Positions 7,098 through 64,000 of a DNA stretch of 64,000 nucleotides are shown here, piece after piece. The notes under the pieces were generated by a model that worked only from the letters and a program-made list of their open reading frames with translations, did not search any database and was not told where the DNA came from. Each line of letters starts with the position of its first letter. Position 1 is the first letter of the stretch. The DNA is from a virus: the IMG/VR virus record IMGVR_UViG_3300017971_000273, one strand, 5' to 3'. The translations under genes and the position numbers were made by a program.

Positions 7098-7289
7098 ATG
7101 GAAGCTATTTTAGCAATAGCCCTTGTCTTTTCTATTGCGTGGGCTGTGGTTTGTGGGTGCTTGGGCTTGATTATGACTACTAGTGGCGGCGGTGCCCAGC
7201 ACACTGTCGAAAAACTACTTGTCGTGATTATATTGGCCGTTGGATTTGGCCCACTGGCGTATGTCTTATACAAGCTGTTTGGAGGATAA
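7098..7289 (+). CDS. small membrane protein
   Basis: two hydrophobic helices. Confidence 0.6.
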   Translation: MEAILAIALVFSIAWAVVCGCLGLIMTTSGGGAQHTVEKLLVVIILAVGFGPLAYVLYKLFGG

Positions 7290-7290
7290 T

Positions 7291-8211
7291 ATGGGCTTGG
7301 ATTTAATGGTGACGATGTGGCCAACCTTTTCTCACTTCAAGAGATTCGTGGTTGATAAACGACTCAACGGCATCAGGCTTAATAGTGCGATGGTTAAGGG
7401 AGAAGCGTTAGACACCGAGCTTGATATTGCTAGGAAGATTCAAGATTCCGTGCCTTTGTATTTCGATATTAAAGGCAAGCAACTTCGTATTGTTGAGACA
7501 ATTATTCTCCCCGACAGGCTGGAACTCAAGCTTAACCACCCCATCAAGGTGAAGACTCCCACCATGGTTCTTTTCAAGGCGGGCGAAGATTGCTGCCTGT
7601 TGAAAGAGGTGAGGGACGGAACCCATCTGGTCTTCGAGAGCGGGCCAGAATACATGGTATATGAGGGTGAATCTCTGCACATTAGAGATCCAAGCCTGGA
7701 AGTTCTTGGCCCGACTTTTCTGCCCTTTGAGATTGAGAAGATTGAGAAAGCCAGGAAGGCTGGATTCAACAAGTTCTTTCTCTCGTATGTGGAAAGCCAA
7801 CGGGATATTGATGAGTTCAGGGAGTTTGTAGGCAAAGATTCTTTGATTATCGCCAAGATTGAGAACCAGAAAGGCTTGGAGTATGTAGCCAGAGAGTATC
7901 GTGATCAAGAAGGGTTGCGTCTGGTTGCTGCTCTTGGTGATATGTATGTGGAGGTTGAGAAGCCACATGAGATTACCAGGGCTCTCAAGCTAATCATCGA
8001 GCGAGATCCCAAAGCTCTTGTGGGTTCGAGGATGTTGCTTTCCATCGTTGATGCCCCCGTTCCCTCTTGTGCCGACTTCCTACAGCTTGCGTGGCTGTAT
8101 GATATTGGCTATAAGAAAATGATGCTGTGCGATGAAATCTGCTTGAAAGAAGAGTGGCTTTCTACGGCGGTGGATGCTTTTGACCATTTCAGGCAGGGCT
8201 ATGTGGGTTGA
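7291..8211 (+). CDS. pyruvate kinase-like protein (barrel plus B domain, no C-terminal regulatory domain)
   Basis: GGAGG SD; GIRLNS, FDIKGKQLR, FLSYVES, IIAKIEN, ALGDMYVEV, GSRML correspond to PK motifs RLN, DTKG, SFV, AKIE, ARGDLGVE, ATQML. Confidence 0.75.
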   Translation: MGLDLMVTMWPTFSHFKRFVVDKRLNGIRLNSAMVKGEALDTELDIARKIQDSVPLYFDIKGKQLRIVETIILPDRLELKLNHPIKVKTPTMVLFKAGEDCCLLKEVRDGTHLVFESGPEYMVYEGESLHIRDPSLEVLGPTFLPFEIEKIEKARKAGFNKFFLSYVESQRDIDEFREFVGKDSLIIAKIENQKGLEYVAREYRDQEGLRLVAALGDMYVEVEKPHEITRALKLIIERDPKALVGSRMLLSIVDAPVPSCADFLQLAWLYDIGYKKMMLCDEICLKEEWLSTAVDAFDHFRQGYVG

Positions 8212-19370: not shown

Positions 19371-20396
19371 ATGAGTAAATTGGATCTTCCGGTTCCCTCG
19401 CACTTTGATGCGAGCAAAGTTAATGAGCTTTTCCATGTTAAGTATGAGGATATTTTCACCAGGGCAAAGGAGTGGGCCAAGCGACATGACCTCCAGCCTG
19501 CGGCCAAAGATAAGCTTCGCGTCTGCTTGATTGCTATTGACTGCCAGAATACTTTCTGTATGCCGTATCCCGATGGGGAGCTTTCTGTGGTAGATGCGGA
19601 CAAAGACATCGTGCGGCTTTGTGAGTTTATCTATAGGAATATGGATGTAATTACCAATATTTCTCCCACGATGGACACTCACTTGAGCAAGCAGATTTTC
19701 CACCAGGATTTCTGGGTCAATGATGAGGGTGAGCATCCTCCTCCCGGTGTCACTATGATTTCTGCGGACGATGTTAAGAAGGGCGTGTGGAAGGTGAATC
19801 CGGTTATGGCCAGCGTTCTTAACGCCAGCTACACCGGGCTTCATAAGTATGCCCTTCACTACACACAGACTCTCGCTGACGAGGGCAAGTATGCTTTGCT
19901 TATCTGGCCACACCACGCGATGCTTGGTGGAGTTGGCCATGCGCTTGTTCCCCTTCTTGAAGAAGCCATCTTTTTCCATGACATCGCTCGTGGAAGCCAG
20001 ACCGACTTCCAGATTAAGGGTGGAAATCCCTTGACTGAGAACTATTCGGTGCTTCGTCCAGAAGTTCTTACCACCGCAAAGGGCGTTGCTATTGCCCAGA
20101 AGAACACTGCTTTTATCGAGAAGCTGCTCAACTTTGATGCGGTTGTGATTGCTGGCCAGGCTAAGTCTCACTGTGTTGCTTGGACGATTGACGATCTGCT
20201 CAATGAGATTAACACCAAGGATCCCAAGCTGGTCAAGAAGGTTTATCTTCTGGAGGATTGCACCTCTCCGGTTGTGATTCCTGGCATCGATTTCACCGAC
20301 CAGGCTAACGAGGCTTTCGAGAGGTTCCAGAAGGCTGGGATGCATGTTGTTAAATCTACTGACCCAATTACCACCTGGGATGGGATTACCCTATGA
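19371..20396 (+). CDS. nicotinamidase-like cysteine hydrolase (isochorismatase superfamily)
   Basis: AAGGAG SD; IDCQNTF (Asp), MDTH and WPHH (metal ligands), IKGG (Lys), AKSHCV (Cys). Confidence 0.8.
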   Translation: MSKLDLPVPSHFDASKVNELFHVKYEDIFTRAKEWAKRHDLQPAAKDKLRVCLIAIDCQNTFCMPYPDGELSVVDADKDIVRLCEFIYRNMDVITNISPTMDTHLSKQIFHQDFWVNDEGEHPPPGVTMISADDVKKGVWKVNPVMASVLNASYTGLHKYALHYTQTLADEGKYALLIWPHHAMLGGVGHALVPLLEEAIFFHDIARGSQTDFQIKGGNPLTENYSVLRPEVLTTAKGVAIAQKNTAFIEKLLNFDAVVIAGQAKSHCVAWTIDDLLNEINTKDPKLVKKVYLLEDCTSPVVIPGIDFTDQANEAFERFQKAGMHVVKSTDPITTWDGITL

Positions 20397-20938
20397 TACA
20401 CTACCTAACTGGCGATGCCACAGAGCCCCAGGTTAATAAGGGAGCGAGAATCATCGCTCATATTTGTAATGATCTTGGAGGTTGGGGGAGCGGTTTTGTT
20501 GTTGCCCTGTCTAACAAGTGGCCTGAACCAGAGAGAAAGTATAGAGAGTGGTTCAAGTGGGCTACGGACGACACAAACAAAACGCTGCCGCTGGGGCAAA
20601 TACAACTCGTCCAGGTGAAAGATCCTAAAAAGGAAGGTCCGCTCTATGTGTGCAACATGATCGCACAAGAGGGATACACTGCTCCAGACCATCCAATTGC
20701 CGTTAGGTATGATATGCTTTGTGCATGTCTGGCTGATTTGAACAACTGGATTGGTCACTATTGTCATCTAAAGAGTCGTATGGTTCTGCCGCCCACTAAC
20801 ACTCACCTTTCAATCCATATGCCGCGAATTGGTTGCGGTTTGGGCGGCGGAGATTGGGGAATTGTAAGTGAGCTTATCGGAGCTTTGCTTACAGCGTGCG
20901 ATGTGTATGTTTATGATTTGGAGGAATCAAATGAGTGA
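20393..20938 (+). CDS. macrodomain protein (Poa1p/TARG1-like ADP-ribose hydrolase)
   Basis: YLTGDAT, IAHICNDLGGWGSGFVVAL, MPRIGCGLGGGDW. Confidence 0.88.
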   Translation: MIHYLTGDATEPQVNKGARIIAHICNDLGGWGSGFVVALSNKWPEPERKYREWFKWATDDTNKTLPLGQIQLVQVKDPKKEGPLYVCNMIAQEGYTAPDHPIAVRYDMLCACLADLNNWIGHYCHLKSRMVLPPTNTHLSIHMPRIGCGLGGGDWGIVSELIGALLTACDVYVYDLEESNE

Positions 20939-26736: not shown

Positions 26737-27630
26737 ATGCTACTAAACGATTTACAATCCAGAAATCTAATCCACCCTCCACCCTGGCTTCCCAGCACTA
26801 CACATTACCTTTGCATCATGGGGAGTTTCGCATACGGCGTAGCGGGTGATGATTCTGATTGCGATATATATGGCTGGTGTATTCCTCCGAAACAAATGAT
26901 CTTTCCGCATCTTGCTGGCGAGATCGCCGGGTTCGGAAAGCAGATCAAGCGGTTTGATCAGTGGCAGGAACATCATATCAACGATGAAGTCAAGGGCAAA
27001 GAGTATGACTTCAGTGTGTATAACATCGTGAAGTTCTTCCAGCTATGCATGGATAATAATCCGAACATGGTTGATGCTCTCTTCGTCCCCGAGCGATGCG
27101 TAATCCATTGTAGTGCCGTGGGCAACATCGTAAGGGAGAACAGAAAGTTGTTTCTCCATAGAGGTTGCTGGCACAAGTTCAGGGGCTACGCCTACAGCCA
27201 GCTTCACAAAATGGCCATCAAGAACCCCGAGCCAGGAAGTAAGCGTGCGGAATATGTAGAGAAATACGGCTATGATGTGAAGTTCGCTTATCATCTTGTT
27301 CGCTTGATGTATGAGGTTGAGGAAATCCTCACCGCAGGAGATCTCCATCTTGATCAGAATTCCGAGGTTCTCAAGGCCATTAGGCGTGGGGAGTGGTCCC
27401 AAGAGCGCGTGGAAAAGTTCTTCGAACAAAAGGAACATGCGCTCAATTCAGCCTACGAGCAAAGCGGGTTGCCTTGGGGACCAGACGAGAAGGAACTAAA
27501 GAAGCTTCTGTTTAAGTGTCTTGAACATCACTACGGCACGCTCAAGGATGCTTATGTGGAACCGGATAGGTTCAAGAACGCAGTGATGAAGATTATGGAA
27601 ACCTGTGCCGACGCCCTGAAGGGAGGATAA
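26737..27630 (+). CDS. Pol-beta superfamily nucleotidyltransferase (YcgL/RlaP-like)
   Basis: MGSFAYGVAGDDSDCDIYG (GS...DxD), NNPN, GYAYSQ, YDVKFAYHLVRL, AIRRGEW. Confidence 0.85.
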   Translation: MLLNDLQSRNLIHPPPWLPSTTHYLCIMGSFAYGVAGDDSDCDIYGWCIPPKQMIFPHLAGEIAGFGKQIKRFDQWQEHHINDEVKGKEYDFSVYNIVKFFQLCMDNNPNMVDALFVPERCVIHCSAVGNIVRENRKLFLHRGCWHKFRGYAYSQLHKMAIKNPEPGSKRAEYVEKYGYDVKFAYHLVRLMYEVEEILTAGDLHLDQNSEVLKAIRRGEWSQERVEKFFEQKEHALNSAYEQSGLPWGPDEKELKKLLFKCLEHHYGTLKDAYVEPDRFKNAVMKIMETCADALKGG

Positions 27631-31406: not shown

Positions 31407-33749
31407 ATGAAAGCGACTCTACCTATTTTGCCCATTCGAGACCCCGACCTGGTGGTTTTTCCTGGAAACTTTTGCGAGGTGGAAGTTGGCCGAGAGTTCT
31501 CTGTAAACGCCATAAATGTGGCCAAGAATAACGAGATTAACATCATTGTAGGTTTGCAGACAGACAAAGATGTTGATGAGCCAGTGGCCAAAGACTTTCT
31601 CGGTCAATGCACGGAGGCAGAGATTAAAAGTGTGTTGAAAGCAGGCGCAAAAGATGAGCCACATCTTAGAGTCATTCTCGTTGGTGTTAGGCGGGCCCAT
31701 CTCAAAATTGTTGGGCTTACAGAAGGAGAAGAGCAGTATCTCCAGGGTGAGATTGAATATGTGCAAGAAGAAGAGGTTGAGATCACCGATGATATCAAGG
31801 AGCAGGTGAAGGTTCTTTACGATACGATCTCTGAGCACCTACCTAGTATTGCTCTCAAGAAGAAAGAAACTCCCAAAAACAGCCAAGATCTTGCGGCTTT
31901 TTTGGACGACATCGCTGGTCAGCTACAGGTTGATAAACAGGGAATCGTTTCGCGAGAGAAACTCCTTGATCTTCTGCATATACCAAGCCCAGCGGAAAGA
32001 CTGAAAAGACTTGTTGCGATGGTCACGGAGTTGTCCAAAAATACTGAAGTTTTGATTTCAAATGACCCACAACAGCAGGGCGAAGATCCCATGCAGGCTG
32101 AAATTAGGCGGCTGGCCGAGAAGCTCCAGAAGTCCGGAATGCCTGAAGAAAACATGAAGATTGCACAGCAGGAAATGAGGCGGCTCTCTATGACCCCTCC
32201 TAATGGCGCAGAGTTCCAAGTTATGTTTAATTACTTGGAAACGTTGGCTTCTTTGCCGTGGGGCAAGAGCACTGAAGACAGCTTGGATATTGAGAAGGGC
32301 AAAGAGATTCTGGACAGAGATCACTTTGGTCTTAAGAAACCAAAAGAAAGAATCCTGGAGTTTCTTGCGGTTAAGAAGCTTGCTCCAGAGAGAAAGGGCT
32401 CGATTCTTTGCTTTATTGGCCCTCCTGGAACAGGTAAAACGAGCCTTGGCAAGAGCATCGCAGAAGCTATGGGACGTGAGTTTATCCGCACTTCGCTTGG
32501 TGGTGTCCATGATGAGGCAGAGATTCGTGGCCACAGAAGAACCTATGTTGGCGCGATGCCAGGTAGGATTATCCAGCTCATCAAGAAGGTTGGTGTTAAT
32601 AATCCGGTGTTCATGTTGGACGAGTTGGATAAGTTGGGCAGAGACTTCAGAGGCGATCCTGGTTCGGCACTGTTGGAGGTTCTTGACCCGGAGCAGAATC
32701 ACTCTTTCAACGATAATTACCTCGGCATGTCTTTTGACTTGTCGAATGTGTTCTTCATTGCTACAATTAATACCAGGGGCAACATCCAGCCCGCTCTGTT
32801 AGACAGGATGGAGATTATCAAGCTGCCTGGTTATTCCCCGCATGATAAGCTACAGATTGCCAAGAAGCACTTGATTCCCAAGCAGAAAGAGGAGAAGGGG
32901 CTCAAGGATCATGAGATTGCTTTCTCCAAGAATGCAATCAACAAAATCATCGAGGAATATACGAGTGAAGCTGGTGTTAGATCCCTCGAAAGAGAGTGCG
33001 GCAGTGTTTTCAGGAAGGTTGCTGTTCAGGTTGCCTCTAAGAAGAAGCCGCCCGCCATTATAAAGACCGACATGATTCACAAGTATCTGGGGCCAAGTAA
33101 GATCTTTACTCAGCAGGCGATTGAGGAGCCCTCTGTTGGTGTTGCTACTGGACTCGCTTGGGCGGTTAGTGGGGGCTCACTGCTGTTTGTGGAATCTGCG
33201 TTGGTCAAAGGCAAGGGCAAAATTGTTCTGACAGGCAATCTTGGCAAGGTTCTTAAAGAATCTGCGTCAGCAGCCTATACTTGGATTAGGTCCAACGCTG
33301 ACAAGTTTGGTCTTAGCCCTGAAAAGTTCGCTGAGAATAATGTCCACATTCACTTTCCAGCTGGAGCGACACCTAAGGATGGCCCGAGCGCTGGAATCGC
33401 CATTGCTGCATCAATCTTATCTGCCCTCACGGACAGGCCAATTAGAAATGATGTTGGAATGACTGGTGAGATTTCTTTGCGCGGGAGAGTCCTCCCTATT
33501 GGTGGCCTTCTGGAGAAGACTCTTGCGGCTCACAGAGCCAGCCTTAGTGAAGTTGTGTTCCCCATAAGAAACAAGTGCGACCTGGAGGAGGTTCCTAACG
33601 ATGTGAAGAATAGCATCAAACTAACGCCTGTATCCAACTTGGAAGAGGCGCTGGATATAATTATGATGGGCACCAATGGCAGCGTGGATAAGAAGCCCAT
33701 GGGGAAAGTGAACTCCGGTGAGGAGTCGCTTATCAATTTGGAAGGTTAA
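31407..33749 (+). CDS. lon: ATP-dependent Lon protease
   Basis: N-terminal LON domain, GPPGTGKT, HRRTYVGAMPG, LDELDK, PKDGPSAG (Ser), GGLLEK (Lys). Confidence 0.97.
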   Translation: MKATLPILPIRDPDLVVFPGNFCEVEVGREFSVNAINVAKNNEINIIVGLQTDKDVDEPVAKDFLGQCTEAEIKSVLKAGAKDEPHLRVILVGVRRAHLKIVGLTEGEEQYLQGEIEYVQEEEVEITDDIKEQVKVLYDTISEHLPSIALKKKETPKNSQDLAAFLDDIAGQLQVDKQGIVSREKLLDLLHIPSPAERLKRLVAMVTELSKNTEVLISNDPQQQGEDPMQAEIRRLAEKLQKSGMPEENMKIAQQEMRRLSMTPPNGAEFQVMFNYLETLASLPWGKSTEDSLDIEKGKEILDRDHFGLKKPKERILEFLAVKKLAPERKGSILCFIGPPGTGKTSLGKSIAEAMGREFIRTSLGGVHDEAEIRGHRRTYVGAMPGRIIQLIKKVGVNNPVFMLDELDKLGRDFRGDPGSALLEVLDPEQNHSFNDNYLGMSFDLSNVFFIATINTRGNIQPALLDRMEIIKLPGYSPHDKLQIAKKHLIPKQKEEKGLKDHEIAFSKNAINKIIEEYTSEAGVRSLERECGSVFRKVAVQVASKKKPPAIIKTDMIHKYLGPSKIFTQQAIEEPSVGVATGLAWAVSGGSLLFVESALVKGKGKIVLTGNLGKVLKESASAAYTWIRSNADKFGLSPEKFAENNVHIHFPAGATPKDGPSAGIAIAASILSALTDRPIRNDVGMTGEISLRGRVLPIGGLLEKTLAAHRASLSEVVFPIRNKCDLEEVPNDVKNSIKLTPVSNLEEALDIIMMGTNGSVDKKPMGKVNSGEESLINLEG

Positions 33750-39972: not shown

Positions 39973-40101
39973 TGGCCGGCTGGAATCCTGTTTTGGGTAG
40001 GGTTTATATCCACGAATTTTATTATAATGACGAGTGGGTTTTGGTCTATGATCGATGGGGACGCAAATTTCTGTTCCCAGAACAGGAGATATGGTGGTAA
40101 T

Positions 40102-41450
40102 ATGGACGCTTTAAAGACTGACCTTTATCAGCTCACAATGATGGCGGCTTACTATGTGAAAGGTCTTCACAAAAAGAAAGTGACTTGTGAAGGTTTTGTG
40201 AGGAAGTTGCCCCCAGAGAGAAGGTTTCTCGTGATGGCTGGGACCGAGGAGATTAGAGACTTCCTCACCAGCCTGCGATTCACGGCAGACGACATCAAGT
40301 ATCTCAGGGAAGTTAAAGCTCTCAAGCCAGCTTTCTCTATGTCTAACTTCGCTAAATACTTGGAAGATTTCTCCTTCAGGGGTGACTTCTGGGCGATGGC
40401 GGAAGGCGAGATTGCTTTGCTGGTGAGCCACTTATAAGGGTGTCTGGAACGCTGCCGGAAGTTCATATGGCCGAAACCTTTGCCCTTTCGGTGTTGAACC
40501 ATGATATTAAGGTTGCCTCCAAGGCGGCGAGAATTGTTCTCGCCGCCCGTGGGCGACCAGTCTTAGAGTTTGGCACCAGAAGAACCCACCATGAAGCTGC
40601 TATTAGAGCAGCCCGAGCTGCCTATCTTGCTGGGTTTGCGGCAACCTCCAATGTTGAGGCGGGCAGAACATACGGCATCCCTGTTGCTGGAACAATGTCT
40701 CATATGTGGGTCATGGTTTCTAAGAGTGAATCCAGAGCGTTCAGTGATTTTAAGGATGTGTATAGAAGCCCTGTGTTACTAATTGACACCTACGATACGG
40801 ACATGGGCGCTGTTTATGCCGCACAAATTCCGCTACTACAAGGAGTAAGGCTGGACTCTGGAAATCTGGAAACATTGTCCAAAAAAGTTAGGGGAATTTT
40901 GGATAGTAATGGCAAGCAGTCAGCTAAGATTATTGTGTCTAATGACCTCAACGAATATGCCATAGACAACCTGGCCCGTTGTGGTGCCCCTATCGACACT
41001 TTTGCTGTGGGCACTGAGCTTGTTGTTTCCAGAGATGTTCCTTCTCTGGGGGCTGTGTATAAAGTTGTATATGACGATACAGATGATAGACCACTTATGA
41101 AACTGTCCGCAGGCAAGAAGACCTTTCCTGGCCGCAAACAAGTCTTCTTGGATCAGCGAAATGGTGAGTGGAAACATCTATTAGCAATAGAGGGAGCGGT
41201 TGAACCAGAAGAAAACCTCACGCCTCTTCTGGACTGTAATATAAAAGATGGCGAGATTATTGAGGAAAGCGTTGTGGACTTAGAAGTTTCTCGTAAGTAT
41301 TGCAATGCTGCCCTCATTAACCTGCACTCCAATCTGGCTTCTTTGGAACCGAAAGAGACTCAGGTTCCTGTACACCCAGATAAGAGCTTAGAGGAGTTAT
41401 TTAAGAAAGCTATGCAAGATGGATCTAATTTGGGGAAAAGCAGGGACTAG
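40102..41450 (+). CDS. pncB: nicotinate phosphoribosyltransferase, split by an apparent one-base deletion near 40416-40418
   Basis: LKTDLYQLTM; EFGTRRTH; GTMSHMWV; LIDTYD; GVRLDSG; VSNDLNE; VGTELV; VYKV; KKTFPGRKQV; adding one T restores EIAFAGEPLIRVSG. Confidence 0.9.
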
Positions 41451-42566: not shown

Positions 42567-43955
42567 ATGAGAGAGTTCAGGAAGACAACAGGGCGCAATA
42601 AGCGCCCGCAAGTGTGGTTTATTGGTGTGGATCCCAACGACCCCGAAACCTACATCGTTAAGTGGGGTCAGTTGGATGGGGCCATGCAGGAGACTTCCGA
42701 TTCTCCTGGGGATTGCGGCGTTGAAGGTCATTCCGATTATCAGACGCCGGAAGAGTATGTAAAGTTTTGCATTAGCAGAGACATCAGGAAGAAGCGCGAG
42801 CAAGGCTATGTTGAATACATAGACGGCGAACCAGTGGAAGAGCTTTCCACGGCTATTGATTTTGATGAACCTCTACCAAAACATCTCTGTTTCTTCAAGC
42901 CGAAGAAGGAGATTTCAGATAAGAAACTGGCCAAGCTTGAGGAAGATGGGAGGGCTATCTGGACTCTCAAGCGCGATGGCATGTGCCACATCATTGTGAA
43001 GCGGGAAGACGAGGTTGAGATTTACTCCCGCCGTATGGATCTGGTGACGGAGAAGTTCCCACATATTATTGAAAGTGTTGAGCTTTTAGACCTTCCAAAC
43101 AACACAATTCTTCTTGGCGAAATGACCCTATTGAAAGACGATGGGTCGGATGATTTCTTGGGAACCTCAAGAATATGTCGCTCTGATCCCGATTTAGCTT
43201 TGGCATATCAGGGACTTGGAAAGTTTCCCAAGGGCAAAAAGGATAAGGAAGTTCTTGGGAAAGTGTCCTATTACGTTTTTGACATCGCTTTCTATAGCGG
43301 AGCCGATCTCATATCAAGACTGACCGTGAGAAGCCGCCTGGCGGCCCTGAGGAAGATTTTCCAGAAATTAGATGACAGACTAGCACTCAGCACCGGACTC
43401 GCCTCAGATCGCCGCAGAAAGCTCCGAGAGAGCAAGTTGCGTGAGGGGATCCTGCGGAAGTTTCATATCGGTCCAATCAAGATCTATGAGACAAGCACGG
43501 GTGACGATCTGGAGCTGGCCAAGGAGCTTAAAGCCGAAGGCTTTGTTGCTCTAGACGCCGATGCCGTATATGGTGATAAAGCCTATAGTTTTGACGGCAA
43601 GGCACAGAGACCGGATGGTATATGGAAGCGTAAGCCCAAGTATGAAGATGAGTTCGTAATCACTGGCTACTACGAAGGCAGTGGTAAGAATATGGGCAGA
43701 CTTGGTGGATTCTACATCAAGCAGGTTCATCCTGAGACTGGGGAGTGGATTGATTGTGGTAAATGTGGTGGTGGCTTCACGGATCCTCAGCGCATAGAGT
43801 TCTACGAGGAAGGCGATGATCTGATTGACCAGACCATTAAGGTCGAGTTTGATTCTCGCCAGCCTGAGAAAGACGGCGTATTTGCTCTGAGATTTCCGAT
43901 ATATAAGGGACCAGCGGACAAGGAGCCGGAAGAGTGCATCGCTCAATATCTCTAA
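42567..43955 (+). CDS. ATP-dependent DNA ligase with WGR-like N-terminal domain
   Basis: KRDG motif I, LLGEM, VFDI, EGFV, WKRKP, GSGKNMGRLG, GGGFTD, LRFP; N-terminal VKWGQLDG...KKREQGY. Confidence 0.9.
   Translation: MREFRKTTGRNKRPQVWFIGVDPNDPETYIVKWGQLDGAMQETSDSPGDCGVEGHSDYQTPEEYVKFCISRDIRKKREQGYVEYIDGEPVEELSTAIDFDEPLPKHLCFFKPKKEISDKKLAKLEEDGRAIWTLKRDGMCHIIVKREDEVEIYSRRMDLVTEKFPHIIESVELLDLPNNTILLGEMTLLKDDGSDDFLGTSRICRSDPDLALAYQGLGKFPKGKKDKEVLGKVSYYVFDIAFYSGADLISRLTVRSRLAALRKIFQKLDDRLALSTGLASDRRRKLRESKLREGILRKFHIGPIKIYETSTGDDLELAKELKAEGFVALDADAVYGDKAYSFDGKAQRPDGIWKRKPKYEDEFVITGYYEGSGKNMGRLGGFYIKQVHPETGEWIDCGKCGGGFTDPQRIEFYEEGDDLIDQTIKVEFDSRQPEKDGVFALRFPIYKGPADKEPEECIAQYL
43934..43954 (+). 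repeat. 21-bp direct repeat, copy 1
   Basis: GTGCATCGCTCAATATCTCTA, identical to 44189-44209. Confidence 0.9.
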
Positions 43956-49942: not shown

Positions 49943-50365
49943 ATGTTAATGAGATGGAGTCCTTTTTGGGAGATCAGCGCGGCTGAAAAAGTAGTAAGAA
50001 GGTTGATGGATTTTGATAAATTTACTGGAGAAGGGCTCTTTAGGCCACCGGTAGATGTAAGAGAAGATACAAAAGAAATCGCGGTCGATGTTGAACTTCC
50101 TGGTGTTGACCCCAAAGATGTGAAGATTACAGTGGAAAAAAATACGCTGACCATCGAGGGTGAGAAGAAGCTGGAAAGGAAAGAAGAAGGTGATTTTTAT
50201 AGGGCTGAAAGATACTACGGGGCATTTATTCGGTCCTTCTCTCTCCCCACCTCGGCTGATAGTGAAAAGATTTCAGCTTCTTACGACAAGGGAATATTGA
50301 AGATTACTATTCCCAAAAAGAAAGAAGCGGTCCCCAAACAAATAAAGATTAAGGGAGCCAACTAA
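49943..50365 (+). CDS. Hsp20/alpha-crystallin small heat shock protein
   Basis: PPVDVRE, ELPGVDPKDVKI, LTIEGEK, ERYYGAFIRSFSLP, YDKGILKITIPK. Confidence 0.95.
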   Translation: MLMRWSPFWEISAAEKVVRRLMDFDKFTGEGLFRPPVDVREDTKEIAVDVELPGVDPKDVKITVEKNTLTIEGEKKLERKEEGDFYRAERYYGAFIRSFSLPTSADSEKISASYDKGILKITIPKKKEAVPKQIKIKGAN

Positions 50366-50392
50366 AAGGGCGGGCTTCGGCCCGCCCTTTTT
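50364..50392. terminator. bidirectional intrinsic terminator
   Basis: AAAAGGGCGGGC-TTCG-GCCCGCCCTTTTT. Confidence 0.9.
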
Positions 50393-50471: not shown

Positions 50472-50888
50472 TTGATGTATATTCATTCTAGAAAAAGGAT
50501 ACGAAAAGTATATAAAGCCCTTCTTGATAGGCTTCCAAACACCTATCCACAGGCTAGGCTTGTGGTTCACAGCAGCACTCAAAAGCTAAGAGAATATTAT
50601 ACAAAAACCGAAGGCAAAGAAAGTGGAGATCCGCCGTGCGCCTATTGCGATGTCGAAGGCTGGACGATTCATGTGCCAGTGGACTTAGATTTTAGTTTTA
50701 GAGGCACTATGCCACGGCGATTTGCTGAGATTATGCTTCATGAAATTGGACATTTGTATGTCCATCAAAAATACGGGGAAGACGATCCCCGATGGGATGA
50801 CCACGAGACGGCAGAAAAGTACGCCGACAGATTCGCTGCTCGATGGATTAAGAGAATCGATAAGGAGGGTTTCTTTAAAAATCTATGA
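50472..50888 (+). CDS. HExxH zinc metallopeptidase-like protein
   Basis: IMLHEIGHLY...E..ADRFA. Confidence 0.65.
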   Translation: MMYIHSRKRIRKVYKALLDRLPNTYPQARLVVHSSTQKLREYYTKTEGKESGDPPCAYCDVEGWTIHVPVDLDFSFRGTMPRRFAEIMLHEIGHLYVHQKYGEDDPRWDDHETAEKYADRFAARWIKRIDKEGFFKNL

Positions 50889-51556
50889 AAAAAATCTTAG
50901 CACTTATTCTTTGCCTATTCTTAGCTAGCTGCTACACCTTTAATCGTTCTGGTTTCGTAAATCAAAAAATTGAAGATATGTATTTTTCGAGCGTTTCCGT
51001 TACTAACAATGTCGGAAAATCTTCCGGCAGTGGAACGATTATTTGGAACAAGGGTGGCGATTATATGATGGTAATAACTTCCGCCCATGTGATAAAAAGC
51101 ATGCAGAAAAGAAAGAAGGCCATACACATTACTTTTACCTATAGTAGCGCCATCAAACCGATGAAGGTGGTTAAGTTAGATGAGAAAAAGGATTTAGCCT
51201 TACTAATGGGTTATGCGAAAGAGGTAAGCGATGGCCCATACGTTAGAGTGGCGACAAAATCTCCTAACATAGGAGATACTGTGTGGGCCATTGGAACTCC
51301 GATGAGCGTTAAATCTACAGTGACCAAAGGCAACCTAAGCAATTTTGTTTGGGAGGAAAAGCCCAAACGCTTGACTTACAGATTCACCGCCGATGTATTC
51401 TTTGGAAATTCTGGCGGCGGCGTGTTCAATGAGAGAGGGGAGCTGGTTGGTGTTGTAGACAGCATCTCTTATCTTAGAATGTCGGTTTTTTCCTCGATGC
51501 TGATTCCAGGTGGAAACTACGCAGTCGGCTTAGAAGAGATAAGGAAATTCCTATAA
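50885..51556 (+). CDS. trypsin-like serine protease lipoprotein
   Basis: LASC lipobox; TSAHV, DLALL, GNSGGG triad. Confidence 0.88.
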   Translation: MKKILALILCLFLASCYTFNRSGFVNQKIEDMYFSSVSVTNNVGKSSGSGTIIWNKGGDYMMVITSAHVIKSMQKRKKAIHITFTYSSAIKPMKVVKLDEKKDLALLMGYAKEVSDGPYVRVATKSPNIGDTVWAIGTPMSVKSTVTKGNLSNFVWEEKPKRLTYRFTADVFFGNSGGGVFNERGELVGVVDSISYLRMSVFSSMLIPGGNYAVGLEEIRKFL

Positions 51557-51629: not shown

Positions 51630-51902
51630 ATGGTAGCAGGAAAGACGAAGGGCAAGTCTAGTTCTGGCAAGCTGAAGATTCGCAATGAGGCCAGCAACAG
51701 AATTCGCAGAATTAAAACGGAGATTCGCAGGTGCGAGAAGAAACTTAATAAGCTGCTAGCTAGGTTCAACGAGGGTAAGAAGCGGTGGAAATTGAAGGGT
51801 AAAAAGAAAGAGCCTATTGATAAGCTACAGGGAATTGCTCCCGGCAGCAGAAGACATGAGAGACTTGAGGCTCACATTGAATTTTTGAAAGCGTTAGTAT
51901 AG
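51630..51902 (+). CDS. Lys/Arg-rich hypothetical protein
   Basis: GGAGG SD. Confidence 0.65.
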   Translation: MVAGKTKGKSSSGKLKIRNEASNRIRRIKTEIRRCEKKLNKLLARFNEGKKRWKLKGKKKEPIDKLQGIAPGSRRHERLEAHIEFLKALV

Positions 51903-51910
51903 GAGGAGCT

Positions 51911-53413
51911 ATGGGCGCATCTATGAAGGTGAAGGCTTGGAAGGCTGGCGATGCCAAGCAGCCCAACTTTCCATCTACTTTCAAGGTCACGAAAAGGTGG
52001 GAAGGGAATTGCACCGACGTTGCAAAGAACAATAACAAGTTCTATCATGCTGAGATTCAGGTTGCTGCAAACGGTAAGGCCAGAATCATGACGATGTATG
52101 GAAGAGTTGGAGCCAAAAATCCCACGACGGAACACAGATACTATCAATCCGAATCAGCCTGTATAAGCGACTATGAGTCGCTAGTTAGAAAGAAAAGGGA
52201 CAGAAAGAGAAATCCCTATAGAGAAGTGGATCTGGCTATTACGGATGTTGGCTCACAGGGAGCCAAGGAAATCAAGAAGCCCATGACGGGGCTTAAAGTT
52301 AAGGGAAAGATCAAGCAAGCTGATGGCAGCTCATCTTTGCACCCAGAAGTGGTCCGCATGGTGTCTGGTTGGTTTGGGACAACCGGCCAGTTTATCACAA
52401 TGACGCTGAAGTGTCCCCTTGGACAATTGACGAAAGAGCAGATTGATAAGGGACGAGCGGTTCTGGATGATTGTAAATCCAGAGTTAATGCCAAAACTAA
52501 GTCTGGTTCCAGCGAATATGACCAACTAACCAGTCAGTTCTATAGCCTTATTCCTCATGTGCTTCCACACAAGATTGACCCGGCATCCCTAAGGTTGGAT
52601 ACCATAGACAAGATCATGGAGAAACATGACACTTTGGACACCTTCTTGGACGCCAAAAATGTTGCATCTGTGCTAGGTAAGGGAAGTGCTATTGATGACC
52701 AGTATAAGAAATTGAATGCGGAATTAGACTGGATAGATCCCAAGAGCCCGACTGGGCAGTGGATTACGAAGCTGTTGTTTGAGACTCGCGCATCCAACCA
52801 CCAGTTCTTAGGAAAGATAAAGCTCTACAATATCTTTAGTCTTGAGAGGAATAAGGAAAGTGATCATTTCAACGATACGCTCACTAGAGTTGCGAGACAG
52901 GTTAAGGGTAAGAGCGAGAAGCCAAGATTCACCACACTACAACGCCCTGATCTACAAACTGACGAACGGAAACTCTTTACGCAAGCTAATGTGTGGCCAC
53001 TTTGGCACGGGACGCGTCCCCAGAACATGGTGGGCATCATTTCAAGAGGTCTCTTGATCAGGCCATCTGGCGCCGTTCATACTGGGTCGATGTTTGGTGA
53101 TGCGCTCTATCACGCCGAGAGTAGTTCTAAGTCCATGAATTATTGTGGGTGTAGAGGAGCTTTCTGGTCTGGAAAGACCCAGAACGATAGAGTCTTTATG
53201 TTTTTGGAAGATGTGATTGTAGGCAAGCCACATATCGTCACCAGCTCTCAGTTCTTTAGAGAGCCTCCGAGGGGCACGCATAGTGTTTATGCTGTTCCTA
53301 GCAACCGAGGATATGGTGGCCTTTACAACTCCGAAAATATGACCTATGCCTCTTCTGGCCCAGGCCAGCAACATAGGCTTAGATATATTGTGGAGTTTCA
53401 GGCGAATATGTAA
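51911..53413 (+). CDS. PARP-family ADP-ribosyltransferase (WGR + regulatory + catalytic domains)
   Basis: NNNKFY...YGRVG...KKR..PY (WGR); PLGQLTKEQI, LTSQFYSLIPH (regulatory); WHGT, GSMFGDALY, SKSMNY, LYNSE (H-Y-E). Confidence 0.88.
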   Translation: MGASMKVKAWKAGDAKQPNFPSTFKVTKRWEGNCTDVAKNNNKFYHAEIQVAANGKARIMTMYGRVGAKNPTTEHRYYQSESACISDYESLVRKKRDRKRNPYREVDLAITDVGSQGAKEIKKPMTGLKVKGKIKQADGSSSLHPEVVRMVSGWFGTTGQFITMTLKCPLGQLTKEQIDKGRAVLDDCKSRVNAKTKSGSSEYDQLTSQFYSLIPHVLPHKIDPASLRLDTIDKIMEKHDTLDTFLDAKNVASVLGKGSAIDDQYKKLNAELDWIDPKSPTGQWITKLLFETRASNHQFLGKIKLYNIFSLERNKESDHFNDTLTRVARQVKGKSEKPRFTTLQRPDLQTDERKLFTQANVWPLWHGTRPQNMVGIISRGLLIRPSGAVHTGSMFGDALYHAESSSKSMNYCGCRGAFWSGKTQNDRVFMFLEDVIVGKPHIVTSSQFFREPPRGTHSVYAVPSNRGYGGLYNSENMTYASSGPGQQHRLRYIVEFQANM

Positions 53414-53712
53414 TGGTAATAACAGACCAAGATACATCCATTATATTGATGGCCGATCAAAATCCTTTTGGTCTTAGGATTAAAGGCTACGATAAAAATG
53501 GGGACATGATGAGAGGAATTATCAAGATTAATCTTGTAAGTCTTGAGGCTGAACAGATTGTCTTTGATAATAGCGGGCTTGTTCAGTTTGATATTAATGG
53601 TAATGTAATGACGCAAACAGTAGAAGTAGATTTAGTCACCATTGAGCATCCAAATGGGAGCGATTCCCTTATGTCTAAAAGGGTGGTGAATGTCGGGAGT
53701 ATGAACCCATGA
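53413..53712 (+). CDS. hypothetical protein
   Basis: TAATG coupling to the PARP gene. Confidence 0.55.
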   Translation: MVITDQDTSIILMADQNPFGLRIKGYDKNGDMMRGIIKINLVSLEAEQIVFDNSGLVQFDINGNVMTQTVEVDLVTIEHPNGSDSLMSKRVVNVGSMNP

Positions 53713-54839
53713 CGATAAAGATATTTTACACATCAAGGAAATACAAGGAGAATTGGGATAAGGTTTTTGGAAAAGATGAGCCCCTAGTTGCGGAAAAAGA
53801 CTACAAAGACTTGTATGGCTATGGCCTTCCAGACTGGCAAGATATAGTATTTAAGCCAAACAGCTTTGATAATTTTTGCATTAAGCATAACCTATTTGAC
53901 GGTTATGGAGACTTTTTCACAAAAGAGAAAGAGGAGGAAGAAATGGATTTGAAAACGAAGGTATTGGATGTAATTAGCGATCTTTGCGATGACGTGGTGT
54001 CTTTTACTAGCTTGGATGTAAGCAACAGAGTGAAGCAGGAAGGGTTCGCAGATACTCGCCACAGGCAAATTGCTCCGGTTGTTCGTCAGGCCTATATGGA
54101 CGGCGAGCTTGATTTCTTTGGTTATTCGAGAACTTTGATTTCCGTTACCTTGAATAACGGACAAACGACTAACGCTTTCTTGTATCATCATCAGTCAGTA
54201 GATCCGGACTCTTATGATAAGCTGAACCAGATTGCTATTATTCCGGTTGCTACTCCCGCTCCTGCTGCCGATGCGGATGACGATGACTATTCTCCCGTAA
54301 AATTTGATCCAGATCCCGACGATGCCCAACAGGCTTTCGACAGTGCCTTGGCAAATAAGAGCGATGCTCAGAAGGCCTTTGACAATGCGCTTGCAGCGAA
54401 GCAGGATATGCCTTCCAGTAGCGATGTGACTGCTTCAGCACCGAGGGTTGTGAATACCACTCCTGTTGCCGCACCTACCAGTAATGATGGGCTGCTGGAC
54501 ACTGCTGATCGAGAGACTACATATGAAGGTCGTATGGAAGTTCCTGCTGGTTGGGTTCCGCGCATGGGTTGGACTGCTGGTAATGCCGTCTATGCCATTC
54601 TTAATAGAGACAAAATTATCATGAAGACCAGTGTGGTTCAGGGCGAAAATGTTGTGGGAACCATGTATATTAATAGCGACGGGCGACTTCGGTTGACCAA
54701 GATGGCTTCCGTGAATGCTGGCTGGCGAGTTACTTATGGACTCTCCAGAAAGCTGAGTCGTTTTGCTGATAGGATTGAGGTTGAGTGTGCGAACCATCCA
54801 GCTCCGCCGCCTGCCCCAACCTCAACCTTTTGTTTCTAA
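53709..54839 (+). CDS. hypothetical protein with C-terminal AbrB/MraZ-like repeats; probable internal start at 53943
   Basis: EGRMEVPAGW...MGW and DGRLRL; GAGGAGG SD before ATG 53943. Confidence 0.65.
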   Translation: MTIKIFYTSRKYKENWDKVFGKDEPLVAEKDYKDLYGYGLPDWQDIVFKPNSFDNFCIKHNLFDGYGDFFTKEKEEEEMDLKTKVLDVISDLCDDVVSFTSLDVSNRVKQEGFADTRHRQIAPVVRQAYMDGELDFFGYSRTLISVTLNNGQTTNAFLYHHQSVDPDSYDKLNQIAIIPVATPAPAADADDDDYSPVKFDPDPDDAQQAFDSALANKSDAQKAFDNALAAKQDMPSSSDVTASAPRVVNTTPVAAPTSNDGLLDTADRETTYEGRMEVPAGWVPRMGWTAGNAVYAILNRDKIIMKTSVVQGENVVGTMYINSDGRLRLTKMASVNAGWRVTYGLSRKLSRFADRIEVECANHPAPPPAPTSTFCF

Positions 54840-55581: not shown

Positions 55582-57259
<1,678 letters not shown>

Positions 57260-58281: not shown

Positions 58282-58803
58282 ATGAGAGACAATGTAGGTG
58301 CTTGTATTAACCAGAATATTCGTGCTTCACAAGTTCTTCTAATTGACCAAGACGGAAATAACCTAGGAAGCGTTCCTATTAGAGATGCGTTGAAGATGGC
58401 CGAAGATGCCGACCTTGACTTGGTTGAAGTAAATCAAGGAAAAAGCGGCTCTGTTTGTCGCATTATGGACTACGGCAAGTGGAAATACGAGCAAACCAAA
58501 AAGATTAAGAAAAACACGCATCATAAGAAAGTCATGAAAGAAATTAACTTTCGCCCTACTACCGGAACTAATGACCTAACATATCGGGCCAAACAAGTTG
58601 ATAAATTTCTTAAAGCCGGAAATAAAGTGAAGTTGGTTGTGAAGTTCAAGGGGAGGGAGCAAGCGCATATGTATGAAACTGGTAAGGCGCTACTCGAAAG
58701 ATTTCTTGATTTAGTTACGGCCAGCTATGCTATTTACGATACTGCTAAGAGCGATGGCAGATCCATCGTGCTGCTGTTGAACCCCCAAAATGAGGAAAAA
58801 TGA
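58282..58803 (+). CDS. infC: translation initiation factor IF-3
   Basis: INQNIRASQVLLID, DLDLVEV, CRIMDYGKWKYE, KEINFRP, KFKGRE. Confidence 0.93.
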   Translation: MRDNVGACINQNIRASQVLLIDQDGNNLGSVPIRDALKMAEDADLDLVEVNQGKSGSVCRIMDYGKWKYEQTKKIKKNTHHKKVMKEINFRPTTGTNDLTYRAKQVDKFLKAGNKVKLVVKFKGREQAHMYETGKALLERFLDLVTASYAIYDTAKSDGRSIVLLLNPQNEEK

Positions 58804-59309
58804 TAATCACAGACACTTCCGAACTACGAAAGAAAAACGAAAAGGCGTCGGCAGAGGAAGCTCAAGAAATAATTAAGAAATTAGAAAGAGAGCTTGTCGA
58901 GTCTAAGGCGCCTGGAATTGGCCTTGCTGCAAACCAGATAGGAATAAACAAGAAGGTTGCCATTGTCAGAATCAAACACGAAAATGATGATGACGAGAAT
59001 CTGGATCTTGTGAATCCTGTTATGGTGGATCAATGGGGCAGCTTCATCCATAAGGGCGAAGGTTGCCTGAGTATGCCTGGTAAACAAATAAATACGAATA
59101 GATACAGAGAGGTGTTCGTAAAAGATGATCTTCATCCCGCTGGTTTCATTGCTACGGGCCTTGCTGCTATAGCTATACAGCATGAGATTGATCACCTGGA
59201 GAATATGCTAATCACTGATCGCGTGGCTGGTAAGGGTAAGATTAAGAGGAATGATAAATGTCCCTGCGGCAGCGGGAAAAAATGGAAGAAATGTCATGGC
59301 AAAAGATAA
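58800..59309 (+). CDS. def: peptide deformylase with C-terminal SEC-C motif
   Basis: GIGLAANQIG, EGCLS, QHEIDHL; RNDKCPCGSGKKWKKCH. Confidence 0.92.
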   Translation: MIITDTSELRKKNEKASAEEAQEIIKKLERELVESKAPGIGLAANQIGINKKVAIVRIKHENDDDENLDLVNPVMVDQWGSFIHKGEGCLSMPGKQINTNRYREVFVKDDLHPAGFIATGLAAIAIQHEIDHLENMLITDRVAGKGKIKRNDKCPCGSGKKWKKCHGKR

Positions 59310-62941: not shown

Positions 62942-64000
62942 GTGCCTGGAACCGTAGTAGTAGGATTACAATTTGGAGATGAAGGCAAGGGAAAAGTTAT
63001 TGATTATTTGGCCAAAGATGCTAATATGGTCGTTCGTTTTGCCGGTGGCCCGAACGCAGGCCACACGGTCGTAGTGGGTGAAAAGACTTACAAGTTGCAT
63101 CACATTCCGTCTGGAATTGTTCAGTATGCACTTGGAAACAGAGACTTTATTTGTGTCCTGGGGAATGGGATGGTGATTGATCCGGAGGGCTTGAGAGCAG
63201 AGCTTTTGAGTTTCATGAATATAAACAATCGAGGAAGGCCCATTCCAGGCGGCCTCCCGCTGCCTAAGAACTTCCGTATATCTGGCCAGGCACATATGAT
63301 CCTGCCCACTCACAGAGAGTTGGAGCAGTTGTCTGAAAACAGAAGGAAAGGAAACAAGATAGGCACAACCGGCAAGGGGATAAGCCAAGCATATAAAGAT
63401 AAGGCACTGAGATGTGGAATCAGGATGATGGACATGCTGCTTCCCTACGAAGAGCTTAAGAAGAAAGTTGAGCTTCACCTCCTTGAGAACAATTTCCTTA
63501 TGAGAAGAGCAGAGGAGCTTGCCCCTTGGATTAAGAGCTTCACCAAGTTCTTTGAGAGCTACATAGACAATGATACTTCTGTTCTAATCAACAATTATTT
63601 GTATGATCGCAATGTGCTATTTGAAGGAGCGCAAGGTGCTCTGCTTGACATAGACCACGGCACCTATCCCTTAGTGACCTCTTCTAACCCTGTCGCTGGA
63701 GCAGCCTGTACGGGCTCTGGAGTTGGCCCTACGAAGATTAGAGATGTTGTTGGTGTCTTCAAAGCATACACCACTCGCGTTGGTGCAGGGCCCTTTCCAA
63801 CCGTTTTGACTGACGCCAGCGGAGAGATGATCAGAGGTAGAGGTCATGAGTATGGAACCACAACTGGTAGGCCAAGAGATTGTGGTTGGCTGGACTTGGT
63901 GCCGTTATTCCATAGTTGTAGAATTAATGGGACCACACATCTGGCCATCACCAAGCTGGATGTGCTCGATGATTTCGATGAGATTAGAGTCTGTGTTGGA
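62942..64000 (+). CDS. purA: adenylosuccinate synthetase (truncated by window end)
   Basis: GTG start; QFGDEGKGK, GGPNAGHT, IGTTGKG, FEGAQG, GTYPLVTSS, TTRVGAGPFPT, TTGRPRDCGWLD. Confidence 0.95.
   Translation, partial: MPGTVVVGLQFGDEGKGKVIDYLAKDANMVVRFAGGPNAGHTVVVGEKTYKLHHIPSGIVQYALGNRDFICVLGNGMVIDPEGLRAELLSFMNINNRGRPIPGGLPLPKNFRISGQAHMILPTHRELEQLSENRRKGNKIGTTGKGISQAYKDKALRCGIRMMDMLLPYEELKKKVELHLLENNFLMRRAEELAPWIKSFTKFFESYIDNDTSVLINNYLYDRNVLFEGAQGALLDIDHGTYPLVTSSNPVAGAACTGSGVGPTKIRDVVGVFKAYTTRVGAGPFPTVLTDASGEMIRGRGHEYGTTTGRPRDCGWLDLVPLFHSCRINGTTHLAITKLDVLDDFDEIRVCVG

Follow-up and report, generated by a model that had tools for sequence, protein, structure and literature searches.

A compact WGR-regulatory-catalytic PARP in a huge-phage genome fragment and its conserved genomic associates

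Results

The PARP gene and its product

The 64,000-nt viral DNA of IMG/VR record IMGVR_UViG_3300017971_000273, referred to here as the window, encodes at positions 51911–53413 a 500-residue protein with the WGR, helical regulatory (HD) and ADP-ribosyltransferase (ART) domains of a poly(ADP-ribose) polymerase (PARP). Every window gene is on the + strand. The features of the PARP gene, with the evidence for each, are the following.

51911–53413, + strand: PARP gene (WGR-HD-ART), 500 aa; translation of the open reading frame (ORF), Pfam, PDB sequence search, model and fold search
51901–51906, + strand: Shine-Dalgarno sequence AGGAGG, 4 nt 5' of the PARP ATG; read from the sequence
51980–52243, + strand: WGR domain, residues ~24–111; Pfam, alignment to the PARP3 WGR domain (2eoc), model strands at 24–78, motif table
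52343–52711, + strand: HD (PARP_reg), residues ~145–267; Pfam, six model helices, alignment to the PARP1 HD
52718–53401, + strand: ART catalytic domain, residues ~270–497; Pfam, invariant columns
53006–53008 (H366), 53108–53110 (Y400), 53141–53143 (Y411) and 53333–53335 (E475), + strand: active-site codons

Three Pfam models match the protein in the order WGR (PF05406, residues 33–98, E 2e-12, 47.5 bits against a cut-off of 22), PARP_reg (PF02877, residues 167–259, E 4e-13, 49.9 bits against 26.8) and PARP catalytic (PF00644, residues 285–462, E 4e-24, 85.8 bits against 26.7). The best PDB sequence matches found with phmmer were catalytic fragments of PARP1 (E 1e-25), followed by PARP2, PARP3, PARP4 and tankyrases, with residues 166–320 paired with the HD of PARP1. 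AlphaFold2, run from an alignment of 63 relatives, gave a model with a mean pLDDT of 89.8 and a pTM of 0.81. Its top PDB fold matches in Foldseek were PARP1 WGR-CAT chains on a DNA double-strand break (8g0h_D, E 1.5e-28; 4dqy_C, E 5e-27, TM 0.69/0.75), and the next match after the PARP1 chains was PARP2/HPF1 on a DNA break (6x0l). The three-domain PARP identity is far beyond chance. The domain order read from the DNA letters in the initial annotation is thus upheld by Pfam, the PDB sequence search and the predicted structure, and structure prediction, which that annotation had proposed as a check, returned a PARP-like fold.

The His-Tyr-Glu (H-Y-E) triad that had been assigned to the motifs WHGT (residues 365–368, H366), ALY (398–400, Y400) and LYNSE (471–475, E475) is intact. 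In the HMMER alignment, H366, Y400 and Y411 pair with the histidine and two tyrosines of PARP1, and in a 65-sequence alignment the E475 column is that of the glutamate of the eukaryote-type LLYNE motif. A one-residue insertion before the glutamate of LYNSE, relative to LLYNE of PARP1, was considered and ruled out, the multiple alignment being ungapped there. H366, G367, Y400, K407, Y411 and E475 are invariant among the 63 relatives, down to 27% identity, and the triad is retained in 65 of 65 sequences of the wider alignment. The WGR motif reads Y63-G64-R65-V66-G67, with tyrosine for tryptophan, a form found in nearly all prokaryotic and phage PARPs; among the relatives G64 is invariant and Y63 and R65 are nearly so. 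Asparagine takes the place of PARP1 Tyr986, as in most PARPs of prokaryotes and phages, nearly all of which have asparagine, histidine or aspartate there. Zinc fingers, PADR1 and BRCT gave no Pfam match, and only 23–32 residues precede the WGR domain; judged by its sequence, the architecture is the minimal one of PARP2, PARP3 and bacterial PARPs and not that of PARP1. The protein has no family match in PADLOC or NCBIfam.

Distribution and phylogeny

The protein belongs to a large, maintained family. A word-indexed metagenomic search gave at least 637 relatives at E 1e-5 or better; among the matches listed, nearly all are 480–520 aa long with the same three domains, and some lie on contigs of 300–490 kb. 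An exhaustive search of representatives gave 1350 clusters at E 1e-10 or better, and IMG/VR gave 64 PARP loci, many of them on viral contigs of 200–620 kb. GenBank phage matches are all at most 45% identical. Those of full length (~24–27%) come from the uncultured huge phage LR756511, Klebsiella phages, Xanthomonas XacN1 and Xoo-sp13, and those from Stenotrophomonas and Cellulophaga phages cover the catalytic end only. Compared by megablast with the phage collection, a 20-kb portion of the window gave no match.

The initial annotation had described PARP-like enzymes as rare even in bacteria, but novelty of the phage PARP does not survive comparison with the literature. The PARPs of Aeromonas phage Aeh1 and Cellulophaga phage phi4:1 were named in 2014 (PMC4245714), PARPs of a few jumbo phages were noted in 2021, with the XacN1 protein cited (PMC7824862), and in 2022 the PARP family was listed among the most frequent viral ART families (PMC9503650). 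In GenBank, gp111 of Klebsiella phage vB_KpM_FBKp34 (FBKp34) is described as a poly [ADP-ribose] polymerase, and the WGR, regulatory and catalytic domains are all named. In view of these reports and of the FBKp34 annotation, phage PARPs are already known as a kind; the window gene adds a well-populated huge-phage branch and is linked to an undescribed partner gene. The separation of the window PARP from T4 Alt and Mod, as a member of a different ART clade, was correctly recognized.

A maximum-likelihood tree was built from 65 sequences (28 phage, 22 from bacterial or archaeal metagenome-assembled genomes (MAGs), 4 eukaryote-type, 10 unlabelled metagenomic and the window PARP). It was rooted on the eukaryote-type sequences by choice and not on an established root, and the eukaryote-type label was assigned from PDB similarity to PARP1/2 and from a single named sequence, that of a euglenid. 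A branch with 100% support sets the eukaryote-type PARPs apart from all others. The window PARP is one of nine huge-phage and metagenome sequences that form a clade with full support (the window clade). With support of 90, this clade joins a second huge-phage clade (41–44% identity; the sister clade), a third one at 37% and three sequences from Kofleriaceae MAGs (46–47%); the mostly-phage set of 28 rows has support of 97. Because the tree places the protein in this phage-dominated branch, the term ‘eukaryote-like’ used at the outset holds for the architecture but not for descent: the sequences point to a phage and bacterial radiation and not to a recent capture from eukaryotes.

The closest cellular PARPs, at 46–47% identity, lie on Kofleriaceae MAG contigs of 34–189 kb (L099–L101), have the partner gene described below downstream of them and are nested in the huge-phage branch. 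Transfer from phage to bacterium, a prophage or mis-binning might account for the nesting, which may also be a hint at host range.

A winged-helix partner gene

Two genes follow PARP without a gap.

53413–53712, + strand: 99-aa ORF with a 1-nt overlap with the PARP stop (TAATG); ORF list
53709–54839, + strand: PARP partner, 376 aa, with a winged-helix-like domain (~80–170) and a C-terminal MraZ/AbrB-like beta domain (~260–360); conserved linkage and model

The start of the partner overlaps the 99-aa ORF by 4 nt, as the latter overlaps PARP by 1 nt, and the three genes are predicted to be translationally coupled. No relatives of the 99-aa ORF were found, and it has no Pfam, PHROG or PADLOC match.

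The partner stood out when ORFs were called in 58 phage PARP loci, 10 kb per side, and their proteins clustered: among the 40 most widespread clusters, that of 53709–54839 is the sole non-PARP cluster with a window gene. Of the 58 loci, 34 have the gene downstream of PARP and in the same orientation. What its members have in common is a domain of ~90 residues in which F99, T100, L102, D103, N106 and H118 (window numbering) are invariant. The protein belongs to no Pfam, PHROG or NCBIfam family. Its model has a winged-helix-like fold at residues 80–170 with pLDDT above 90, for which an ESM Atlas search gave a weak lead (0.85) to DUF1413/single-stranded-DNA-binding clusters. The C-terminal beta domain at 260–360 is weakly like MraZ (Foldseek matches weak, best E 2e-3), a tandem AbrB-type DNA binder.

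The association extends beyond phages. In a profile search, 18 out of 48 PARP loci of bacteria (Armatimonadota, Chloroflexota and Kofleriaceae) had the partner domain encoded right behind PARP, and most of these copies have a C-terminal extension of ~130 residues, like the window partner. The linkage occurs in three separate regions of the PARP tree, with 4 changes of state. Within viral records of 120–480 kb that contain the partner, it is single-copy and never more than ~6 kb downstream of PARP (18 of 18). PARP clades with no copy of the family close to PARP have none elsewhere in their records either. Complex prediction for PARP with the winged-helix domain scored 0.23 against a mark of 0.32 and gave no verdict. 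Functional coupling of the partner to PARP is considered probable.

The short partners of the sister clade (~165 aa; L006–L043, e.g. L040:15646–16149) continue after the common domain with a Pro/Ala/Thr-rich linker and end in a conserved peptide of consensus W..LF..QPSLFP.K, a Q-x-S-L-F terminus that we take to resemble the bacterial beta-clamp-binding motif QL[SD]LF.

DNA ligase linkage

A second conserved neighbour lies upstream.

42567–43955, + strand: ATP-dependent DNA ligase, 8 kb upstream of PARP; PHROG 114 (E 3e-34), NCBIfam ATP-ligase models, syntenic in relatives

A DNA ligase is found within 10 kb of PARP on the same strand in 45 of the 58 phage loci, and its type and position follow the clade. 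In the window clade it is ATP-dependent, and its centre lies 4 to 9.4 kb upstream from that of PARP. The sister-clade ligase is NAD-dependent, has a BRCT domain and lies 3.5 to 8 kb upstream, and in a distant clade an NAD-dependent ligase is placed 2.8 kb upstream or 2.4–7.8 kb downstream of PARP. In Cellulophaga phage phi4:1 the PARP gene is two genes away from an ATP ligase. Since the linkage outlasts changes of both ligase type and relative position, it argues for a functional connection.

Hydrolases, macrodomain and NAD salvage

Genes that could reverse or supply ADP-ribosylation were surveyed in the window and in 24 PARP-bearing IMG/VR records (G001–G024).

20393–20938, + strand: possible eraser 31 kb upstream of PARP, a macrodomain of SCO6735/BT1257 (ALC1-like) type; PDB 2afc (E 4e-33), 5e3b (E 3e-32), 2fg1 (~1e-32), PHROG 335

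The Pfam Macro model misses this protein; the three PDB matches, all at E ~1e-32, nevertheless bear out the macrodomain named in the initial annotation. Members of the SCO6735 class take off PARP-type protein ADP-ribose. The class reverses the thymidine ADP-ribosylation of DNA by DarT (PMC9411070) and, by analogy, the window macrodomain may for that reason be an anti-defence gene; it also has weak matches to DarG.

An ADP-ribosylglycohydrolase (ADP_ribosyl_GH, ARH) is encoded in 20 of the 24 records, including all 11 that are at least 90% complete, set against ~5% of jumbo phages in a different data set (PMC9503650). Among fragment records of terminase relatives used as a control (24–84% complete), the 84%-complete record has both ARH and PARP and one 75%-complete record has neither. 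No ARH lies inside the 64-kb window; the closest complete relative (G001) encodes both a macrodomain and an ARH. A bacterial-type poly(ADP-ribose) glycohydrolase (PARG) occurs in six records, all of the sister clade, and an SCO6735-type macrodomain in four others, the two never together. PARG (PF10021) was absent from G001 and from G002 and G025 of the window clade, its occurrence being confined to the sister clade and LR756511. NADAR lies ~3 kb downstream of PARP in 26 sister-clade loci, and a Macro gene immediately upstream of PARP in a distant clade. In LR756511.1, a 595-kb uncultured phage, an ARH is encoded ~4 kb from PARP on the same strand (181318–187942), and the genome also has Macro and PARG.

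The window encodes enzymes for all four deamidating steps of NAD salvage, 10–38 kb from PARP, in agreement with the NAD salvage named in the initial annotation. Nicotinamide is released by PARP, and salvage would be sensible for a PARP user; host NAD depletion explains these genes equally well. The nicotinate phosphoribosyltransferase ORF (40440–41450) covers only positions 120–444 of the 451 of its profile, and the N-terminal part is presumably in the preceding 136-aa ORF (40027–40437), in another frame; a split gene, a frameshift and an assembly error are possible reasons.

A circuit of writer, eraser and cofactor supply had been proposed from these genes. The genes are real, but they lie outside the PARP transcription unit, at a distance of 31 kb for the macrodomain and of 10–38 kb for the NAD genes, and have other explanations; the circuit is for that reason plausible but only partly supported. 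The winged-helix protein, the DNA ligase and ARH are better-supported associates of PARP than are the macrodomain and NAD salvage.

Genomic context

The region is syntenic with IMG/VR record 3300029288_005873 (441,904 bp, CheckV 100% complete), whose PARP is 65% identical to that of the window and which has a large-terminase match over the Pfam cut-off. Terminase_6N is over its cut-off in G001, Terminase_6C was not found in four related records, and a tail sheath gave only sub-threshold matches, in the sister clade. The window stretch is present in sediment and seawater metagenome runs; no RNA run is listed as containing it. Upstream of PARP lie the following features.

50364–50391, + strand: terminator-like hairpin after hsp20, with a T tail and a 12-bp stem in which 8 pairs are GC; consensus scan only
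50472–51556, + strand: two genes upstream of PARP in the same likely transcription unit, encoding an HExxH protein of 138 aa and a trypsin-like protease of 223 aa; Trypsin_2 Pfam E 4e-17, weak PHROG/PADLOC metallopeptidase matches, kept in the window clade

The hairpin is the nearest strong one upstream and, by sequence, a likely boundary of the PARP transcription unit. The 138-aa protein (50472–50888) has an HEIGH zinc-peptidase motif, is conserved in the window clade and in the 442-kb relative is encoded directly upstream of PARP. It has weak matches to models of CapP/RmrA/ImmA-like metallopeptidases, enzymes that are often turned on by DNA damage.

Further gene content of the window includes tRNA nucleotidyltransferase, NAD synthetase, kinases, a PP2C phosphatase, a ubiquitin-like cassette and the ATP-dependent DNA ligase, together with Lon, Hsp20, GroEL, IF3 and peptide deformylase (31407–33749, 49943–50365, 55646–57259, 58282–59309). 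A short pyruvate-kinase-barrel protein is encoded at 7240–8211, an RlaP RNA-repair nucleotidyltransferase at 26737–27630, and an adenylosuccinate synthetase (E 3e-127) at 62942–64000, running off the window end. Ribosomal protein S21 is found in relatives of the window phage.

Discussion

Proposed function

Sequence, model and analogy together suggest, with moderate confidence, that the gene encodes a functional compact PARP of the PARP2/PARP3/bacterial type, a DNA-break-activated ADP-ribosyltransferase that would work with its DNA-binding partner in phage DNA metabolism. The parts of this proposal differ in strength. From its conserved residues and its modelled fold, the protein is very probably an active ADP-ribosyltransferase. 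Activation by DNA is, by analogy with related enzymes, a reasonably likely property, and repair or replication as the process served is a tentative assignment that falls somewhat short of an even chance.

In the proposed mechanism, the WGR domain would bind a DNA strand break, as homology to PARP1–3 and to the Herpetosiphon enzyme suggests, and binding would lift the block that the HD imposes on the catalytic domain. The H366-Y400-E475 site would then attach ADP-ribose taken from NAD+ to the enzyme and to acceptors close by, with chains as the probable product; the PARP of Herpetosiphon is DNA-dependent and makes long poly(ADP-ribose) (PAR) chains (PMC4245714, PMC8120803). The winged-helix protein, predicted to be co-transcribed with PARP, is a likely acceptor, targeting factor or regulated output. 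Because PARP is tied to a predicted DNA-binding partner and close to a DNA ligase, it is placed in the handling of nicks and breaks of replicating phage DNA. The ADP-ribose would be removed by phage hydrolases, namely the ARH found genome-wide in relatives and the macrodomain in the window clade. A bolder and rather unlikely extension is that PARP and the winged-helix partner form an ancient two-gene DNA-damage module of huge phages and several bacterial phyla, in which the break-sensing PARP would either modify the DNA-bound partner with ADP-ribose or be brought into position by it, switching gene expression or recruiting ligase or clamp to the lesion, as a RecA/LexA-free counterpart, in prokaryotes and viruses, of PARP-driven repair signalling.

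Several observations weigh against this proposal. No assay of any phage PARP was found in the literature, and the H-Y-E triad is necessary but not sufficient for chain formation, as PARP3 and PARP4 keep it and yet are mono-transferases. The partner is absent from several PARP clades and is thus not universally required. The Klebsiella, XacN1 and LR756511-type lineages have no ligase link, and where it occurs the link may reflect a conserved DNA-metabolism block instead of a function. The 11 near-complete records with ARH are not independent lineages and the ~5% baseline comes from a different data set; FBKp34 and phi4:1 lack ARH, Pfam-Macro and PARG, so that reversal is not universal.

Alternative explanations

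The prediction published for jumbo-phage PARPs (PMC7824862) is a part in host takeover, the enzyme modifying host proteins such as RNA polymerase and translation factors much as T4 Alt and Mod do, but with chains, and the breaks from host-genome degradation serving as a trigger only. The window is indeed rich in host-manipulating genes (kinases, PP2C, the ubiquitin-like cassette, Lon, GroEL, IF3, deformylase), and the PARP phages without an eraser would fit a one-way modification. The kept WGR and HD sensor, the partner in common with free-living bacteria and the ligase linkage nevertheless point to DNA, and PARP has no link to virion or early-gene modules, which makes host takeover unlikely as the main role of the window PARP. 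Even less can be said for a catalytically silent relic or a pure DNA-break binder, a very improbable state for a protein whose NAD-pocket and catalytic residues are invariant across hundreds of relatives at 27–80% identity and whose ORF is intact, with a strong ribosome-binding site.

PARP2 and PARP3 can ADP-ribosylate DNA 5'-phosphates, and the window PARP might similarly cap DNA ends against host exonucleases, or bring about superinfection exclusion or abortive killing through the use of NAD+, with the macrodomain, NADAR and NAD salvage acting as anti-DarT and anti-NADase devices. Membership of the window macrodomain in the class that removes DarT-type DNA ADP-ribose (PMC9411070), its weak matches to DarG, NADAR 3 kb from PARP in 26 loci and a full nicotinamide salvage would all suit such a conflict or NAD-economy role. 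The protein matches no PADLOC defence model, however, and a phage that rebuilds NAD+ is unlikely to drain it via PARP. The PARP-partner pairs on bacterial chromosomes have no obvious defence neighbours in 3-kb flanks, and NAD salvage and the macrodomain lie far from PARP and are found in many PARP-less phages (PMC9503650). A role in conflict is accordingly held to be improbable, and a break-activated enzyme of phage DNA metabolism remains the preferred reading.

Comparison with known systems

The window PARP adds to a huge-phage branch with hundreds of metagenomic members, and its sequence alone is ordinary. The handles on the function of phage and bacterial PARPs are the predicted DNA-binding partner found in phages and three bacterial phyla, the ligase neighbour that switches type and the co-occurrence with ARH. 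If the partner were an acceptor or a regulator, PARP signalling in prokaryotes would gain its first mechanism, with implications for the origin of eukaryotic PARP repair signalling.

A closely related system is the PARP/NAD-dependent ligase/NADAR cluster of huge phages in the sister clade (IMG/VR contigs of 250–480 kb, e.g. L010, L029 and L040; 41–44% identity). It resembles the window in PARP length and domains, in the winged-helix partner downstream and in the ligase upstream. It differs in its NAD-dependent BRCT ligase, in the NADAR by PARP, in an often present bacterial-type PARG and in its partner of ~165 aa, which has the W..LF..QPSLFP.K ending in place of the MraZ/AbrB-like domain; the window clade, in contrast, has an ATP ligase and an SCO6735-type macrodomain and no PARG. 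FBKp34 gp111 (QQV91759.1) is likewise phage-encoded, with the same three-domain order and the H-Y-E triad kept, but it is 26% identical, has 428 aa, comes from a 141-kb phage and branches elsewhere in the PARP tree. FBKp34 has no winged-helix partner or ligase near PARP and no ARH, Macro or PARG in its genome.

Bacterial PARPs of Armatimonadota, Chloroflexota and Kofleriaceae are similar to the window PARP in their WGR-(HD)-ART order, Y-G-R motif and H-Y-E triad, and many have the same two-part partner directly downstream, whereas they are cellular genes and only 25–31% identical (46–47% for Kofleriaceae). The DNA-dependent, PAR-forming enzyme of Herpetosiphon aurantiacus is likened to the window PARP by its description and not by sequence (PMC4245714, PMC8120803).

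Human PARP1–3 are 21–25% identical to the window PARP, which lacks the zinc fingers, BRCT domain and long N-terminal tail, has tyrosine for the tryptophan of WGR and asparagine at Tyr986. We know of no HPF1-type cofactor in prokaryotes. With human PARP2, PARP3 and the C-terminal module of PARP1, the phage protein nonetheless has in common the three-domain fold and the histidine, glycine, two tyrosines, lysine, serine and glutamate of the NAD pocket.

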